From IMG/VR virus record IMGVR_UViG_3300043403_000051, positions 1-64,000 of that record: 64,000 nt of DNA; one strand, written 5' to 3'. Shown piece after piece: positions 5,360 through 21,925 of this stretch. Both the position numbers and the translations under genes were made by a program. Each line of letters opens with the position of its first letter. Position 1 is the stretch's first letter. Source of the DNA: a virus. Under the pieces are notes generated by a model that was given only the letters and a program-made list of their open reading frames with translations, did no database searches and was not told the DNA's origin.

Positions 5360-5716
5360 TTATATATCACCACCCGCCCAAAAATTTTCTTTGGCTTCTA
5401 TTGCCACATCTTTTAGGATTTCATATAGTTGGGGAATATGCATTAATATATCAATATCCACTTTATATATAAGGTTGTCGGTAAATTGCATGAATGTAAA
5501 TGTAGTTATGTCATTGTTTGTTGACAAACAAACTCTTATTTTCCATTCCGACAGTGTTTTACAGACTACAGCGTGGGTCTTATAAGTATCATCGTATGTA
5601 TATGTTACTTCATCTAACCATTTTGGCTTTTGATGAGGAAGAGTAATTCCATAACTTGCTATATGCTTATCATAGAATTTTTTAACTTGCTCAAAACTTG
5701 CAGGAATTATTTGCAT
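5360..5716 (-). CDS. hypothetical protein
   Basis: 118-aa ORF in operon context. Confidence 0.55.
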   Translation of the reverse strand: MQIIPASFEQVKKFYDKHIASYGITLPHQKPKWLDEVTYTYDDTYKTHAVVCKTLSEWKIRVCLSTNNDITTFTFMQFTDNLIYKVDIDILMHIPQLYEILKDVAIEAKENFWAGGDI

Positions 5717-10228: not shown

Positions 10229-10254
10229 AAGGTATTATTTAAATGTTATTTTTG

Positions 10255-10328
10255 TGAACGGGATTGGATTCAAACCAATGACCTACTGCTTAGAAGGCAG
10301 TTGCTCTATTCAACTGAGCTACCCATCC
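10255..10328 (-). tRNA. tRNA-Arg(TCT)
   Basis: GGATGGG acceptor, TAGCTCAG D-arm, ACTGC-CTTCTAA-GCAGT, ATTGG-TTTGAAT-CCAAT. Confidence 0.85.
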
Positions 10329-11753: not shown

Positions 11754-11883
11754 TGCCTTAGGCAGGACTCGAACCCGCACTCTAAAAGAACTGAATGTTT
11801 AGTTCAGCGTGTATTCCGAGTTTAATCAAGCGCTAGGTTTGGAAGCTAACAGACCCCTTGATTAAACATTTCACCACTAAGGC
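11754..11883 (-). ncRNA. tRNA-Leu-like RNA with ~48-nt hairpin in the D-loop and an AAA anticodon
   Basis: GCCTTAG/CTAAGGC acceptor with A73, TGGTGAAA...GGAATACACG D-arm split by a GTTTAATCAAG/CTTGATTAAAC hairpin, CTGAA-CTAAACA-TTCAG, variable arm, GCGGG-TTCGAGT-CCTGC. Confidence 0.7.
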
Positions 11884-16794: not shown

Positions 16795-16826
16795 TTTGGT
16801 AGTTTCAAAAATTTAACGTATCTTTG
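16795..16826 (+). promoter_or_regulatory. Bacteroidota sigma-type promoter
   Basis: TTTGGTAG...TATCTTTG with 20-nt spacing; ATG 5 nt downstream. Confidence 0.75.
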
Positions 16827-16831
16827 TATTC

Positions 16832-17053
16832 ATGAAGGATGTTATAGAGAATACTTTTTTAGATTTACCTCTTATGAGGAGAGCTATTGTTTATGGTATT
16901 GCTTTGTATGATGAAAAATATGAGTTATTGAAGGTTATTGACCCCCTTATAAAAGAAGATAGGGATGAATTTTTAAAAGCGGCAGAACTCATTAAAGATA
17001 TATGTACACTGTCAGGTGGTGAAATTGGTATACGCGCTGCCTCGTCTCGGTAG
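16832..17053 (+). CDS. hypothetical protein, probably leaderless; 3' end overlaps a tRNA-like RNA
   Basis: ORF starts at the predicted transcription start. Confidence 0.5.
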   Translation: MKDVIENTFLDLPLMRRAIVYGIALYDEKYELLKVIDPLIKEDRDEFLKAAELIKDICTLSGGEIGIRAASSR

Positions 17054-17134
17054 TGCAATTCTTGATAAGGACAGTCATTTAAACATATTGGACGCTTATA
17101 GAGTTGCTTGTAGGTTCGAATCCTACCCTGACAG
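17010..17134 (+). ncRNA. tRNA-like RNA with giant variable arm
   Basis: TGTCAGG/CCTGACA acceptor, Leu-type D-arm TGGTGAAATTGGTATACGC, CTGCC-TCGTCTC-GGTAG, ~55-nt hairpin GCAATTCT...AGAGTTGC, GTAGG-TTCGAAT-CCTAC. Confidence 0.7.
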
Positions 17135-17514: not shown

Positions 17515-17546
17515 TTTGGTAGTTTCAAAAAAGTTACTTACCTTTG
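17515..17546 (+). promoter_or_regulatory. promoter of tRNA operon 1
   Basis: TTTGGTAG...TACCTTTG with 20-nt spacing. Confidence 0.8.
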
Positions 17547-17564
17547 TATTTCAATAAAAGAAAA

Positions 17565-17669
17565 ATGAATTCAAGAACTGTCATAGATAATATTAGAAAC
17601 GCGGAGGGCTGTAAAAAGGCTCTTGTGGGTAATGTATGTTTTTATGACGGAGGTTGCGGATGTAACTAA
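17565..17669 (+). CDS. attenuator leader peptide 1, MNSRTVIDNIRNAEGCKKALVGNVCFYDGGCGCN
   Basis: Short ORF between promoter and terminator; codons 6-19 match the downstream tRNA set. Confidence 0.8.
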   Translation: MNSRTVIDNIRNAEGCKKALVGNVCFYDGGCGCN

Positions 17670-17692
17670 AGACAGATAAAATAAAATATATG

Positions 17693-17732
17693 AACCCCTC
17701 AAGAGCCAAAGCTTCTGAGGGGTTTCTTTTTT
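17693..17732 (+). terminator. attenuator terminator 1
   Basis: AACCCCTCA...TGAGGGGTT followed by TCTTTTTT, directly before tRNA-Lys. Confidence 0.85.
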
Positions 17733-18072: not shown

Positions 18073-18405
18073 ATGATTAAGTTTTTATCAGCTATATTTC
18101 TTATCTTTGTAGTTGCTACAATGTCAAAGACAGGAACAGCAAGTTTTTATCACTCTAAGTTCGAAGGTAGGAAAACAGCAAACGGTGAAGTATTTAGAAA
18201 TAATGGGTATACGGCAGCATCAAATCAGTTCAAGCTTGGTGATAGTGTAAGAGTTACTAACCTTGAAAATATGAGGAAAGTAAATGTGAAGATTAATGAT
18301 AGAATGGCTGATGGTATAAGATTGATTGATTTAACACAAAAAGTAGCAAGAGATTTAGGTTACTATAAAAAAGGTATAACAAAAGTAAAAGTAGAAAAAA
18401 TATAA
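18073..18405 (+). CDS. RlpA-like double-psi beta-barrel protein (lytic transglycosylase family)
   Basis: Signal-like N-terminus, GTASFY, TANGE, TAA, VRVTN, VKINDR, IDL. Confidence 0.85.
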   Translation: MIKFLSAIFLIFVVATMSKTGTASFYHSKFEGRKTANGEVFRNNGYTAASNQFKLGDSVRVTNLENMRKVNVKINDRMADGIRLIDLTQKVARDLGYYKKGITKVKVEKI

Positions 18406-18826: not shown

Positions 18827-18917
18827 AAAGTAGTTGGCGTAATTGGGAATGAATACCAACAATAGTTAACGCCCTATATCAGTATAGGAGATGCGGGTGG
18901 AAGTCCTGTACTACTTT
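18827..18917 (+). ncRNA. degenerate tRNA-like element
   Basis: AAAGTAGT/ACTACTTT acceptor, GCGT..ACGC D-stem with enlarged loop, CCTATA-TCAG-TATAGG, GCGGG-TGGAAGT-CCTGT. Confidence 0.5.
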
Positions 18918-18924
18918 AACATAC

Positions 18925-19313: not shown

Positions 19314-19793
19314 ATGGACAAATATTTTAAAACTGAGACTGGTAAAATAGTTGATATAATAGAATACACGGCCCAACAAATAAAAGACAATCCCTCTGTT
19401 AAGATATACATAGGTGCTGATAGCCAAGTCTACGGCCCTAAGATTAAGTTTATCTTAGCTATTGTATATAGGGTTGGTAATAGGGGTGGGCACTGTATTC
19501 ATAAGCTTATAAAGACTGAAAGACCACCCAAAGGGATTCCTGATGAAATTCAGGTTAATAACAGGCTTACAGAGGAAGTTTACTTAACTATGGAGCTTGC
19601 CCAATATTTTATTGATAATAGTTCTTTTAAACTGGAGGCAGTTGAATTTGACTTTAATCAAGAGGAAAGTTACCTAAGTAACAAGCTAATAAACTTATCA
19701 ACAGGTTGGGCTAAAGGACTTGGTTTTAAAGCACGTACTAAGCCTGATGAACTGATAGCTTGCAAGTATGCAGACCATCTCGTAAGATTTTAA
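19314..19793 (+). CDS. RNase H-like YkuK (DUF458) family protein
   Basis: IYIGADSQ, GGH, RL.EEV, KPD..IA...AD; start MDKYFK. Confidence 0.75.
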   Translation: MDKYFKTETGKIVDIIEYTAQQIKDNPSVKIYIGADSQVYGPKIKFILAIVYRVGNRGGHCIHKLIKTERPPKGIPDEIQVNNRLTEEVYLTMELAQYFIDNSSFKLEAVEFDFNQEESYLSNKLINLSTGWAKGLGFKARTKPDELIACKYADHLVRF

Positions 19794-19795
19794 TT

Positions 19796-20392
19796 ATGAT
19801 TGTAATATATAAAATAGAAAATCCAAAAGGTAAAGTTTATATTGGTCAAACCAAAAGACTTATTCAAAGAAAGTCTGCTTACAAAAATTTAAGATGTAAG
19901 AAACAAAGAAAACTTTATAGTTCTTTAAATAAATATGGTTGGGAAAATCATACACTTTGTGTTTTACATGAGTTACCTGATGATATAGAGCAAAGAGTAG
20001 TAGATGATTATGAAATTTTTTACTATGAACAATTTATTGCTTGTGGATTTGAAATGCTAAACCTAAAAACATGCGGAAACGGCGGAGGATTACACTCGGA
20101 GGAAACAAAGAGATTGATAGGAAAACAAAGTAAGGAAAGATTTAAAGCTAAATCTGGAATGAAAATAGCTCAGGTAAATCTTAATTTGGAAATTATTAAT
20201 TTTTGGGAGAACGGTTATACACTACAACAAGAAAGAAAGTATTACAATATATCAAGAAAATGCAGAGAATTTCCAAGTATAGCTTATGGATATTTTTGGT
20301 TATACGAAAAAGATTTACATAAATTAACGCAAATAGACAAGCTTAAAATAAAAAAAGACGGGAATGGTGTTTATAGTTATTTCAAAATGTAA
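19796..20392 (+). CDS. GIY-YIG homing endonuclease with NUMOD-type C-terminus
   Basis: VIYKIEN..KVYIGQT, LN...GG, HSEETKRLIG, AYGYFW. Confidence 0.85.
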   Translation: MIVIYKIENPKGKVYIGQTKRLIQRKSAYKNLRCKKQRKLYSSLNKYGWENHTLCVLHELPDDIEQRVVDDYEIFYYEQFIACGFEMLNLKTCGNGGGLHSEETKRLIGKQSKERFKAKSGMKIAQVNLNLEIINFWENGYTLQQERKYYNISRKCREFPSIAYGYFWLYEKDLHKLTQIDKLKIKKDGNGVYSYFKM

Positions 20393-20431
20393 TAATCTCT
20401 GTAGAGTTTAGTAATTCATTAACATTATTTA

Positions 20432-20463
20432 TTTGGTAGATTAAAAAAAGATTTATACCTTTG
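20432..20463 (+). promoter_or_regulatory. promoter of tRNA operon 2
   Basis: TTTGGTAG...TACCTTTG with 20-nt spacing. Confidence 0.8.
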
Positions 20464-20469
20464 TATCCC

Positions 20470-20547
20470 ATGAAGAATTTCAACACATATTATAGTCTCT
20501 CATTGTTATCCAGCCTAACGGGTCGGGAGCTAAAGGTATGGGTATAA
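20470..20547 (+). CDS. attenuator leader peptide 2, MKNFNTYYSLSLLSSLTGRELKVWV
   Basis: YYSLSLLSSL run upstream of Leu/Leu/Ser/Ser/Tyr tRNAs. Confidence 0.85.
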   Translation: MKNFNTYYSLSLLSSLTGRELKVWV

Positions 20548-20576
20548 TAAAGATAAACTCTTAAATCAAAACATAT

Positions 20577-20604
20577 AAAAAAGCTCCCTATTGGGGGCTT
20601 TTTT
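20577..20604 (+). terminator. attenuator terminator 2
   Basis: AAGCTCCC-TATT-GGGGGCTT followed by TTTT. Confidence 0.85.
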
Positions 20605-20611
20605 AGTTTAT

Positions 20612-20684
20612 GGCTCTATGACGTAATTGGAAACCGTCTTGGCTTTAGAACCCAAGTTTCCGAGTTCGAGTCTCGGTAGAGCTA
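20612..20684 (+). tRNA. tRNA-Leu(TAG), short variable loop
   Basis: TTGG..TTTAGAA..CCAA, A73. Confidence 0.8.
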
Positions 20685-20687
20685 CAT

Positions 20688-20760
20688 GCCTTTGTGATGA
20701 AACGGAATACATGTCAGACTTAAAATCTGAATTTTACGGGTTCGACTCCCGTCAGAGGTA
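20688..20760 (+). tRNA. tRNA-Leu(TAA), short variable loop
   Basis: TCAGA-CTTAAAA-TCTGA, A73. Confidence 0.85.
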
Positions 20761-20765
20761 CATTT

Positions 20766-20850
20766 GGAAGCACGTAAAGTTGGCGTACTTATCCGTCTTG
20801 AAAACGGTGAAGAGGTAACACTTGTGCAGGTTCGACCCCTGCTGTTTCCG
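20766..20850 (+). tRNA. tRNA-Ser(TGA)
   Basis: CCGT-CTTGAAA-ACGG, long variable arm, G73. Confidence 0.85.
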
Positions 20851-20853
20851 CAT

Positions 20854-20937
20854 AGAGAGGTGACTGAATGGTAAGGTACTGGTTTGCTAAACCAGGGTCA
20901 GATAAAACTGGAGTGGGTTCGATACCCATCCTCTCTG
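20854..20937 (+). tRNA. tRNA-Ser(GCT)
   Basis: CTGGT-TTGCTAA-ACCAG, long variable arm. Confidence 0.85.
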
Positions 20938-20998
20938 CTAAAGGGTTCCTGTATCAGGCAAAATATAACCCCCGTTGTGGTATAGGAATCGTTTATTT

Positions 20999-21083
20999 GA
21001 GATAGCTGTCGTGATGGAGGAACGGCACTGGTCTGTAAAACCAGCACTATGAAACACAGTAGGTTCGAATCCCACCTATCTCA
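20999..21083 (+). tRNA. tRNA-Tyr(GTA)
   Basis: CTGGT-CTGTAAA-ACCAG, long variable region. Confidence 0.85.
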
Positions 21084-21109
21084 CATTAACAATTAATTTT
21101 AATTATTTA

Positions 21110-21141
21110 TTTGGTAGTTAGATAAAAAGATACTACCTTTG
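21110..21141 (+). promoter_or_regulatory. promoter of tRNA operon 3
   Basis: TTTGGTAG...TACCTTTG with 20-nt spacing. Confidence 0.8.
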
Positions 21142-21145
21142 CTTT

Positions 21146-21226
21146 ATGAATGTAACACGTACACATACGCAACAGTTTTGGTTCCCTACAAGGGCTGGGC
21201 TTGGTATGTGTGATAATAGAGGATAA
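21146..21226 (+). CDS. attenuator leader peptide 3, MNVTRTHTQQFWFPTRAGLGMCDNRG
   Basis: TRTHTQQFWFPTR run upstream of Pro/Thr/Phe/Gln/His/Arg/Trp tRNAs. Confidence 0.85.
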   Translation: MNVTRTHTQQFWFPTRAGLGMCDNRG

Positions 21227-21250
21227 ATTCCCCCAAACACTCACTCATTG

Positions 21251-21288
21251 AAAAGCCCAGGACATAAAATCCTGGGTTTTTTATTTTT
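21251..21288 (+). terminator. attenuator terminator 3
   Basis: AAAAGCCCAGGA-CATAAAA-TCCTGGGTTTT followed by TTATTTTT. Confidence 0.85.
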
Positions 21289-21291
21289 AAT

Positions 21292-21365
21292 CGGGATGTG
21301 GACTAATGGCAAGTCACTTACTTTGGGAGTAAGGCATCATGGAGGTTCGAGTCCTCTCATCCCGA
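21292..21365 (+). tRNA. tRNA-Pro(TGG)
   Basis: CTTAC-TTTGGGA-GTAAG. Confidence 0.9.
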
Positions 21366-21370
21366 CATTT

Positions 21371-21442
21371 GCCTCGTAAGCATATATGGTGATGCAGCGC
21401 ACTTGTAATGCGCAGAATAGGTTTCGAGTACCTAACTTGGCT
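21371..21442 (+). tRNA. tRNA-Thr(TGT)
   Basis: GCGCA-CTTGTAA-TGCGC. Confidence 0.85.
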
Positions 21443-21449
21443 CAGTAAT

Positions 21450-21521
21450 GGAGATATAGCTCAGTTGGAAGAGCAACGGATTGAAGCCCCGTGAGCACCA
21501 GTTCGACTCTGGTTATCTCCA
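21450..21521 (+). tRNA. tRNA-Phe(GAA)
   Basis: ACGG..TTGAAGC..CCGT, GGAGATA/TATCTCC acceptor. Confidence 0.85.
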
Positions 21522-21528
21522 CATATAT

Positions 21529-21599
21529 TCCCATTTGGCGTAACGGAAGCGTAGGACTCTTTGAAAGTCTTGGAAATTGTTCGATTCAATTAATGGGAG
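21529..21599 (+). tRNA. tRNA-Gln(TTG)
   Basis: GGACT-CTTTGAA-AGTCT. Confidence 0.85.
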
Positions 21600-21604
21600 C
21601 ACAC

Positions 21605-21676
21605 GGGTTTATTGATGTAATGGAAGCATGGCAGTTTGTGAAGCTGCTCGTATGGGTTCGAACCCCATATCTACCC
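21605..21676 (+). tRNA. tRNA-His(GTG)
   Basis: GCAGT-TTGTGAA-GCTGC, G-1:C73. Confidence 0.85.
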
Positions 21677-21681
21677 CTTTT

Positions 21682-21753
21682 ATCCTCTTAGCATAATGGA
21701 AGTGCAGCAAGCTACGAACTTGCGTTGTGTGAGTTCGAGTCTCATGGAGGATT
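21682..21753 (+). tRNA. tRNA-Arg(ACG)
   Basis: GCAAG-CTACGAA-CTTGC. Confidence 0.85.
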
Positions 21754-21765
21754 CTTTTTATAACT

Positions 21766-21835
21766 GCGTATGCCTAAAGGAGTAGTAAGCGGTCTCCAAA
21801 ACCGTGATTTATCAGTTCGAGTCTGGTCATGCGTG
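21766..21835 (+). tRNA. tRNA-Trp(CCA)
   Basis: GCGGT-CTCCAAA-ACCGT; weak D-arm. Confidence 0.8.
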
Positions 21836-21846
21836 CTTAAATAGTA

Positions 21847-21896
21847 TACCCAAGTTAATTATTTGTTAAAAGTAATTGATTTGGGTTATTTTTTTT
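21847..21896 (+). terminator. terminator closing the tRNA region
   Basis: ACCCAAGTTAATTA/TAATTGATTTGGGT stem followed by a T-tract. Confidence 0.7.
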
Positions 21897-21925
21897 GGTA
21901 GTGTCATAAATTCTTGTTATTTTTG
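21894..21925 (+). promoter_or_regulatory. promoter of the packaging/virion block
   Basis: TTTGGTAG...TATTTTTG with 20-nt spacing. Confidence 0.7.

Follow-up and report, generated by a model that had tools for sequence, protein, structure and literature searches.

Enterobacterial leader-peptide attenuators of amino-acid operons include the multivalent ilvGMEDA (Ile/Leu/Val) and thr (Thr/Ile) systems as well as trpL, hisL, pheL and leuL, and in E. coli the pheST attenuator, with its pheM leader, controls phenylalanyl-tRNA synthetase. Here we describe a leader at positions 21146-21288 of a 64,000-nt stretch of freshwater phage DNA ("the window", positions 1 to 64,000 of the virus record IMGVR_UViG_3300043403_000051, a single contig of 83,054 bp), which is likely a ribosome-mediated (leader-peptide) transcription attenuator of the trp/ilv type controlling a phage tRNA operon. 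Judged by its sequence and that of its relatives, the seven tRNAs of this operon are probably made only when ribosomes slow on their codons.

The leader resembles the ilvGMEDA and thr attenuators in having a promoter-adjacent short open reading frame (ORF) with regulatory codons, on which a stalled ribosome would sense aminoacyl-tRNA supply, in its four RNA regions with predicted, mutually exclusive pairings (1:2, 2:3 and 3:4), and in the intrinsic terminator placed just before the regulated genes. In contrast to those systems, what is regulated here is a set of tRNA genes, with no biosynthesis enzyme or synthetase among them, and the sensor would therefore read its own product, closing a feedback loop. 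Seven amino acids are sampled here and ten in a sister unit of the same array, compared with one to three in classical attenuators. Codon choice follows isoacceptors (CGN versus AGA for Arg), and the element is phage-borne, with a promoter motif that is not sigma-70-like and almost no 5' untranslated region, again unlike the classical cases. The pheST attenuator is alike in acting on a component of the translation apparatus rather than on a biosynthetic pathway, but it controls a synthetase instead of tRNA genes, senses one amino acid and is chromosomal. Old papers on the E. coli tRNA-Phe genes pheU and pheV may mention an attenuator-like upstream sequence, for which a literature search gave nothing relevant.

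T-box riboswitches (RF00230) likewise tie tRNA status to terminator read-through via an antiterminator; they differ in binding uncharged tRNA directly, in having no ORF and in controlling synthetase and amino-acid genes. No T-box match was found, either at the gathering score or at E values up to 10. The window unit has no sequence relation to the classical leader families; none of these reached its Rfam gathering score, and the only leader family listed in a permissive scan was His_leader (RF00514; 12.6 bits against a cut-off of 49, E = 8.5).

The nearest published biology that we found is the trn operon of Anabaena sp. PCC 7120, a long tRNA array that is silent until translational stress induces it and whose promoter is controlled by the repressor TrcR, which binds direct repeats there (PMC8421152, PMC10272220). 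It is alike in being an accessory array that stays off until translation is impaired, and differs in that its control is neither codon-specific nor block-specific. The strings "attenuat-", "leader" and "terminator" occur 0 times in the text of PMC8421152, and the single mention of a "tRNA operon" in PMC3082878 is irrelevant to attenuation of tRNA genes. A full-text search of the literature, with subscription journals and supplements outside its reach, turned up no report of tRNA genes under leader-peptide attenuation. The leader appears to apply a known attenuation mechanism to tRNA genes, and the comparative support for this reading is strong.

Layout of the leader unit and its relatives

The array, which spans 17.5-21.9 kb of the + strand, has 23 tRNA genes by ARAGORN. 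A 24th, tRNA-Ser(TGA) at 20766-20851, was seen only at a relaxed ARAGORN threshold, scoring below the ARAGORN default and the Rfam gathering score; it fills out a Leu/Leu/Ser/Ser/Tyr block. The array is split into three units that share an identical order of parts: a promoter-like motif, an ATG with a short ORF, a gap, a hairpin followed by a T tract, and the tRNAs. Across the three, the ATG lies 4-18 nt past the motif, the ORF has 25-34 codons and the gap measures 20-30 nt; in units 2 and 3, 8-9 nt separate the GC-rich hairpin stem from the first tRNA by scripted measurement. The third unit, the subject of this analysis, consists of the following parts:

21110-21141, + strand: promoter-like motif TTTGGTAG-N-TACCTTTG of the TTTG / TAnnTTTG type, found by regular-expression scan and ending 4 nt 5' of the leader ATG
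21146-21226, + strand: leader ORF of 26 codons plus stop, reading MNVTRTHTQQFWFPTRAGLGMCDNRG, with homologous ORFs at the same position in 8 other loci
21155-21193, + strand: sensor run TRTHTQQFWFPTR of 13 codons, the first 12 of which (to 21190) are readable by the downstream tRNAs
21155-21179, + strand: region 1, the 5' strand of a protector (anti-antiterminator) hairpin within the sensor codons, from the minimum-energy and leader-only folds
21191-21211, + strand: region 2, the partner of region 1 or, via its core CTGGGCTT (21195-21202), of the terminator 5' arm
21249-21262, + strand: region 3, the 5' arm of the attenuator terminator, with AAGCCCAG at 21253-21260
21270-21289, + strand: region 4, the terminator 3' arm (to 21283), running into the T tract
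21292-21836, + strand: tRNAs Pro(TGG), Thr(TGT), Phe(GAA), Gln(TTG), His(GTG), Arg(ACG) and Trp(CCA) (ARAGORN)
21848-21896, + strand: operon-closing terminator-like hairpin and T run (terminator at 21848-21886), conserved in phage Lbo-JY46 (see below), with the next promoter motif from 21894

The attenuator terminator (21249-21283) has 14 pairs, a loop of 7 and a T-rich tail, and its stem ends 8 nt before tRNA-Pro. Six of the seven tRNAs also have Rfam tRNA matches; none is listed for Trp at 21764-21836.

Relatives were found through a protein gene inside the array, 19314-19793, which encodes an RNase H-like YkuK/DUF458 protein (Pfam PF04308). It has 29 homologues of 51-72% identity in a large protein collection, and a search with their alignment (A1) led to 16 metagenomic loci (numbered with the prefix L below), all of them syntenic tRNA arrays. 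The same alignment found no relative in the viral_contigs or genome_contigs collections; against viral_contigs the YkuK protein alone gave 8 pattern matches without a relative, and the promoter motif used as a DNA pattern gave 12 loci, none with a tRNA array. Among GenBank phages there is a single true relative, Leptolyngbya phage Lbo-JY46 (PP438436.1; L001/L030), with 72% DNA identity over 42% of the array and homologous leaders ahead of all three blocks. The DNA search matched 266 GenBank phage records, apart from Lbo-JY46 over single tRNAs only, and a protein-mode search matched 6 records.

The layout of promoter motif, short ORF, terminator and tRNA is repeated across the relative loci. 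We defined 25 units for statistics on this architecture and read five more separately. A strong terminator was found by script in 24 of the 25 and by eye in the 25th. Of the 24 scripted units, 23 have 18-31 nt between stop codon and terminator and one has 53 nt; in 22 the terminator ends 4-13 nt 5' of the first tRNA, and the exceptions, with 89 and 159 nt, are unit 1 of Lbo-JY46 and unit 1 of L021. The gap in Lbo-JY46 contains a tRNA-Lys that was missed at the default threshold.

The leader studied here, which we call the Pro-block leader after its first tRNA, has homologues in eight other metagenomic or GenBank loci, and in all nine loci including the window the frame is open from an ATG beside the promoter motif. 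Their peptides read as follows:

Window: MNVTRTHTQQFWFPTRAGLGMCDNRG
L001: MKITRQHTQFWFPTGTGLGML
L015: MKQFQHTRFWFTPTISGGGCTTCN
L016: MIKFQHTRFWFTQPTGIGLTMRDGDTLR
L014: MKRFTHTWFTFCPQCPTGGEGCCVCILLN
L020: MNLHRTHTWFTTCPQCPFGGEGCCMCENK
L021: MKLQRTHTQWFTCPQCPCTGEGCCVCILN
L024: MKAQRTHTWFTFCPQCPTGEGCSVCVTKIFS
L026: MKRNTQHTWFTCPQCPTQGEGCVLCSLKIFS

The order of the sensor residues and the choice of synonymous codons vary among these homologues, while the composition is kept within the set of the block. Such varying order within a kept set suggests selection on the codons and not on the peptide. It bears on the possibility that the ORF is incidental and that it is the conserved leader RNA itself that recognises a factor or a tRNA by direct binding, in the manner of a T-box. 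The elements ACATAC and TGGTT are nucleotide-invariant in all seven aligned homologues, and the alternative hairpins described below are RNA features, as such an RNA-only switch would have it. We nevertheless hold it to be very unlikely, given the frame that is open in nine of nine homologues, the residue set that is kept while order and synonyms change, and the lack of any Rfam family at threshold, T-box included.

Sensor codons and the tRNAs behind them

Codons 4-16 of the leader (21155-21193) read ACA CGT ACA CAT ACG CAA CAG TTT TGG TTC CCT ACA AGG. The original prediction had been that these 13 codons hold only Thr, Arg, His, Gln, Phe, Trp and Pro, with paired synonyms, and match the seven downstream tRNAs; the letters and coordinates are correct, the ARAGORN tRNAs agree, and the run, in an ORF beside the promoter motif, represents all seven of them. 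At the level of amino acids the match thus spans 13 codons. At the level of codons it spans 12, because the final Arg codon, AGG, is not read by tRNA-Arg(ACG).

In the whole genome, with 166,104 six-frame codon positions, TRTHTQQFWFPTR is the sole run of at least 13 residues from this seven-residue set, and 0.004 such runs would be expected. The frame and the codon set could have been picked by chance, once the tRNAs had been seen, and the set was indeed defined after looking at them. A single run against an expectation of 0.004 excludes a chance match, and the pattern recurs at three units of the genome and, for the Pro-block leader family, at 8 further loci. Taken together with the split between CGN and AGA and the covariation of regions 2 and 3 described below, the unique run and its eight homologous leaders effectively refute a chance origin, to which we assign a negligible probability.

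The two sister units provide further comparisons:

17515-17732, + strand: sister unit 1, with putative promoter, leader ORF 17565-17669 (run VIDNIRNAEGCKKA) and terminator
20432-20604, + strand: sister unit 2, with putative promoter, leader ORF 20470-20547 (run YYSLSLLSSL) and terminator, followed by Leu/Leu/Ser/Ser/Tyr tRNAs

Twelve tRNAs lie behind sister unit 1 (Lys/Cys/Val/Arg(TCT)/Asn/Met/Gly/Glu/Asp/Ile/Ile/Ala). Its run is one of two of that length in the genome with at least 10 different residues, and YYSLSLLSSL is unique in the six-frame translation (expected 0.09). The three units of the phage together partition its predicted tRNA set. Of the 21 leaders from the seven loci that have all three units, 19 have a strictly longer readable codon run for their own block than for any other; the two ties arise because tRNAs were missed or ambiguously typed by ARAGORN.

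The codons also distinguish between isoacceptors. The first Arg codon of the window leader had been noted as CGT, which fits tRNA-Arg(ACG), as opposed to AGA in the leader of unit 1, and this distinction extends across both families: sensor Arg codons are CGN (CGT, CGC or CGA) in all seven typed leaders of the Pro-block family, with tRNA-Arg(ACG) behind, and AGA in all nine of the Lys-block family, with tRNA-Arg(TCT) behind.

A relocated tRNA gives the same picture. In five loci (L014, L020, L021, L024 and L026) tRNA-Cys(GCA) lies inside the Pro block; there the Pro-block sensor has two Cys codons and the Lys/Val-block leader has none. In the window, L001, L015 and L016 tRNA-Cys lies in the Lys block, and Cys is found in the Lys-block leader and is absent from the Pro-block sensor run. 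The Cys codons of the leaders therefore follow the position of tRNA-Cys in nine of nine loci. A maximum-likelihood YkuK protein tree, built from 14 rows with none dropped, groups the window and L001 with L014 as their sister (100/100) and places L015 and L016 elsewhere. This placement implies at least two changes of the tRNA-Cys arrangement, a single change being allowed by 0% of 200 bootstrap trees. As this is one gene tree, recombination of modules in mosaic genomes could mimic independent switches.

These results bear on an alternative in which the leader is translated and the terminator regulated, with general translation stress or amino-acid starvation as the signal and the tRNA match functionally minor. 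On an ORF of 26 codons a ribosome would stall whenever elongation slows for any reason, and the last sensor codons are ill-placed for a model of specific tRNAs, as discussed below; the published Anabaena tRNA array, too, responds to general translational stress (PMC8421152, PMC10272220). A general sensor, however, would have no need for a codon set that tracks tRNA-Cys between blocks, for an Arg choice split into CGN and AGA by the tRNA-Arg behind, or for three sensors with non-overlapping codon sets. We consider this alternative unlikely and favour a sensor of specific tRNAs.

Alternative pairings and a proposed mechanism

At minimum energy (-41.4 kcal/mol; z = -2.5 relative to 200 shuffles), 21140-21291 folds into a helix of 21155-21179 with 21191-21211 and the 14-bp terminator. 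In the original prediction a protector of ACACATAC (21161-21168) with GTATGTGT (21204-21211) enclosed the antiterminator CTGGGCTT. The motifs and their positions are right, but the fold pairs GTATGTGT with ACACGTAC (21155-21162, one G-U) instead; the antiterminator also lies where it had been placed, but is itself partly base-paired and not merely enclosed, because the helix extends (21173-21179 with 21191-21197). The complementarity claimed between CTGGGCTT (21195-21202) and the terminator arm AAGCCCAG (21253-21260) was confirmed, and 2:3 complementarity is kept by differing sequences in the nine homologues.

We then folded the leaders of seven homologues in stages, with a ribosome footprint modelled at A-site codons. 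The leader alone folds to the 1:2 hairpin in all seven. When the A site is set at codon 5, 8 or 11 in an RNA that still lacks region 4, all seven form 2:3, between region 2 and the 5' arm of the terminator; the full RNA folds back to 1:2 plus 3:4. When each leader is matched to the terminator arm of its own unit, the best duplex falls at codons 16-25 without exception, directly past the sensor.

The sequences that form the 2:3 pairing differ from locus to locus (CTGGGCTT/AAGCCCAG in the window, GAGGGTTGTT/AATAACCCTC in L014, AGGGCTAAC/GTTAGCCCT in L016 and AAGGCTGC/GCAGCCTT in L026). RNAalifold, run on a MAFFT alignment of seven leaders, returned no more than 6 terminator-core pairs owing to the poor middle of the alignment, and covariation of 2:3 and 1:2 was judged by duplex energies of each sequence with cross-locus controls. 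In the Pro-block leader family (n = 9) cognate 2:3 duplexes average -13.8 kcal/mol and non-cognate ones -9.1 kcal/mol, with none of 20,000 permutations as low; the two sister leader families gave p = 0.0009 and p = 0.0003. The window duplex has -15.8 kcal/mol, compared with -10.1 +/- 2.2 for dinucleotide shuffles, 40 of 2000 of which were as low.

This covariation also speaks to a simpler view, in which the unit is an ordinary promoter-proximal small gene or micropeptide with its own terminator, and the tRNAs have another source or arise by constitutive leak-through. Phage early regions commonly contain small ORFs and terminators, and this region holds 10 terminator-like sites where 3.4 are expected. 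A plain terminator, however, would not need a region 2 that covaries with its arm, a small gene would have to account for a codon match with an expectation of 0.004, and the gap of only 8 nt between terminator and tRNA-Pro leaves no room for another promoter. We regard this explanation as highly improbable, and return to the attenuator.

Under the attenuator reading, host RNA polymerase would start at the promoter-like motif (21110-21141) and a ribosome would load on the ATG a few bases downstream. With all seven aminoacyl-tRNAs plentiful, the ribosome would pass the sensor and region 1 (21155-21179) would re-pair with region 2 (21191-21211); the terminator (21249-21283) would then form and transcription would halt 8 nt before tRNA-Pro. 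If any tRNA that reads the sensor were scarce, the ribosome would stall on region 1, and the free core of region 2, CTGGGCTT, would pair with the terminator 5' arm. The terminator would be blocked and the polymerase would read into the seven tRNA genes, until the build-up of tRNA relieved the stall, giving negative feedback. The ORF, the terminator, the alternative pairings and the covariation of leader codons with tRNA content and of region 2 with region 3 are seen in the sequences and their comparison; promoter activity, translation of the leader and the direction and size of the response are inferred. The original proposal of a four-region leader-peptide attenuator sensing its own tRNAs has held in all its testable sequence-level predictions (folds in seven of seven, 2:3 covariation, tracking of tRNAs by codons).

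Several observations weigh against this reading. At the level of codons, apart from the unread AGG, CCT requires relaxed, four-way wobble at U34 by tRNA-Pro(TGG). The Leu/Ser/Tyr leader of Lbo-JY46 retains TAT TAT AGT despite the apparent loss of tRNA-Tyr and tRNA-Ser(GCT): neither is present among the typed tRNAs of its array, the whole record has 21 Rfam tRNA matches, and the sole non-array tRNA is annotated as Leu. The tRNA set of L014 is incompletely typed, with Phe found by Rfam only and one tRNA (5633-5703) ambiguous between Lys(TTT) and Gln(TTG), 46-50 of its 72 positions being identical to either kind.

At the level of RNA, a 1:2 protector is predicted in all seven homologues folded, with strong energies in nine of nine (-17 to -30 kcal/mol), but cognate partners pair no better than non-cognate ones (p = 0.07), because ACATAC and its partner are nearly invariant; the predicted protector is thus supported by conservation and not by covariation. 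Before region 4 exists, the free RNA favours 2:3 in six of the seven homologues, and termination must therefore rest on kinetic trapping of 1:2 or on occlusion of region 2 by the ribosome. Placing the A site at codon 14 leaves just 5 of the 8 antiterminator pairs in the window and 0 of 7 in Lbo-JY46, so that the sole Pro codon (codon 14), Thr15 and Arg16 are doubtful sensors. Finally, a stall would report a shortage of charged tRNA, and loss of a tRNA would therefore be indistinguishable from amino-acid starvation.

Comparison with near-identical strains adds nothing to the covariation. Freshwater metagenomes contain contigs near-identical to the window DNA; a look for expression of 20400-21900 listed no RNA run. 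The strain comparison used contigs from four freshwater or leaf-litter runs. No difference is listed for 21102-21412, the whole leader and terminator, in the spanning contigs of X2 and X3, which gives no added covariation, and the unit-3 leader and tRNAs are unchanged in the spanning contigs (21102-21900 compared). Most strain differences (17 of 19 substitutions and both insertions) fall within 20458-20700, mostly in the leader and terminator of unit 2; one of the substitutions, G to A at 20525, is in the predicted antiterminator strand.

The wider array and the meaning of a putative tRNA-sensing leader

The promoter-like motif of the three units has the general form TTTGGTAG-N-TA(C/T)(C/T)TTTG and lies at 17515, 20432 and 21110. 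In a regular-expression scan of the genome, extended copies were found at 16795, 17515, 20432, 21110 and 21894, every one of them ahead of a gene or leader, and the extended motif also precedes most homologous units of the other loci. The TTTG / TAnnTTTG motif, which we take to be typical of Bacteroidota promoters, would by that consensus function as a promoter. The GenBank record PP438436.1 names the cyanobacterium Leptolyngbya boryana as host, and the promoters of its tRNA units are of this same TTTG / TAnnTTTG kind; the host label may deserve checking.

Three protein genes (18073-18405, 19314-19793 and 19796-20392) sit inside tRNA block 1 and, being embedded there, are presumably under attenuator 1. 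Their predicted products are a DPBB/RlpA-like lytic transglycosylase domain, the RNase H-like YkuK/DUF458 protein and a GIY-YIG-like endonuclease, the last with a score slightly below the Pfam cut-off. The leader of unit 1 ends in a Gly/Cys-rich (D/G)GGCGC peptide motif, in the window (17641-17669) and in Lbo-JY46; in other relatives the motif forms a separate mini-ORF just upstream of other leaders (L020 4904-4951; L027 1413-1451; L029 282-347).

Some relatives depart from the compact layout. In L021 (3978-4571) and L024 (1893-2351) about 450-580 nt separate the attenuator terminator from tRNA-Pro, and this interval holds a Cys- and His-rich ORF that we take to be a putative HNH-type homing endonuclease; in L021 the terminator is followed by a 5' fragment resembling a tRNA and by another, new promoter motif. 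L020 (9056-9128) and L026 (5439-5510) each carry a tRNA with a CTA anticodon, of the amber-suppressor type and called "Pyl" by ARAGORN, directly behind its own promoter motif and without a leader ORF or terminator.

Elsewhere in the window, an over-long tRNA-like gene at 17010-17134 (+) looks like a tRNA at both ends, encloses a long insert and overlaps the ORF 16832-17053, and a 130-nt Rfam tRNA match at 11754-11883 (-) suggests an insert or intron. Neither of these over-long genes has a leader or attenuator, and no such leader was seen on reading at the minus-strand tRNAs of the window (10254-10328 and 11754-11883). Relaxed ARAGORN settings also gave a doubtful "Val(AAC)" call at 18827-18918.

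These units bear on why phages carry tRNA arrays and how they regulate them. We tentatively suggest, as a reading that is less likely than not, that the three leaders are isoacceptor-level gauges of the host's decoding capacity, which would reveal when any one tRNA is lost, so that the phage replaces the block concerned and no other. On this reading, regulation of tRNA genes through the codons they serve would be a general, so far unpublished principle of phage tRNA arrays. Each leader would then be an OR gate over 5 to 12 tRNAs, and the loss could stem from host anticodon nucleases, from other tRNA-depleting defences or from host shut-off induced by the phage. The elements would also serve, in compact natural form, as sensors of specific tRNA supply, and could be reused as reporters of tRNA availability. 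If the attenuator reading is true, it would extend textbook attenuation to tRNA genes, with a direct product-feedback loop. The tRNA output of the phage would be driven by demand: decoding speed would be gauged codon by codon, and only the tRNA block in short supply topped up. This would link tRNA-targeting host defences, or a mismatch in codon usage, to the counter-measures of the phage.

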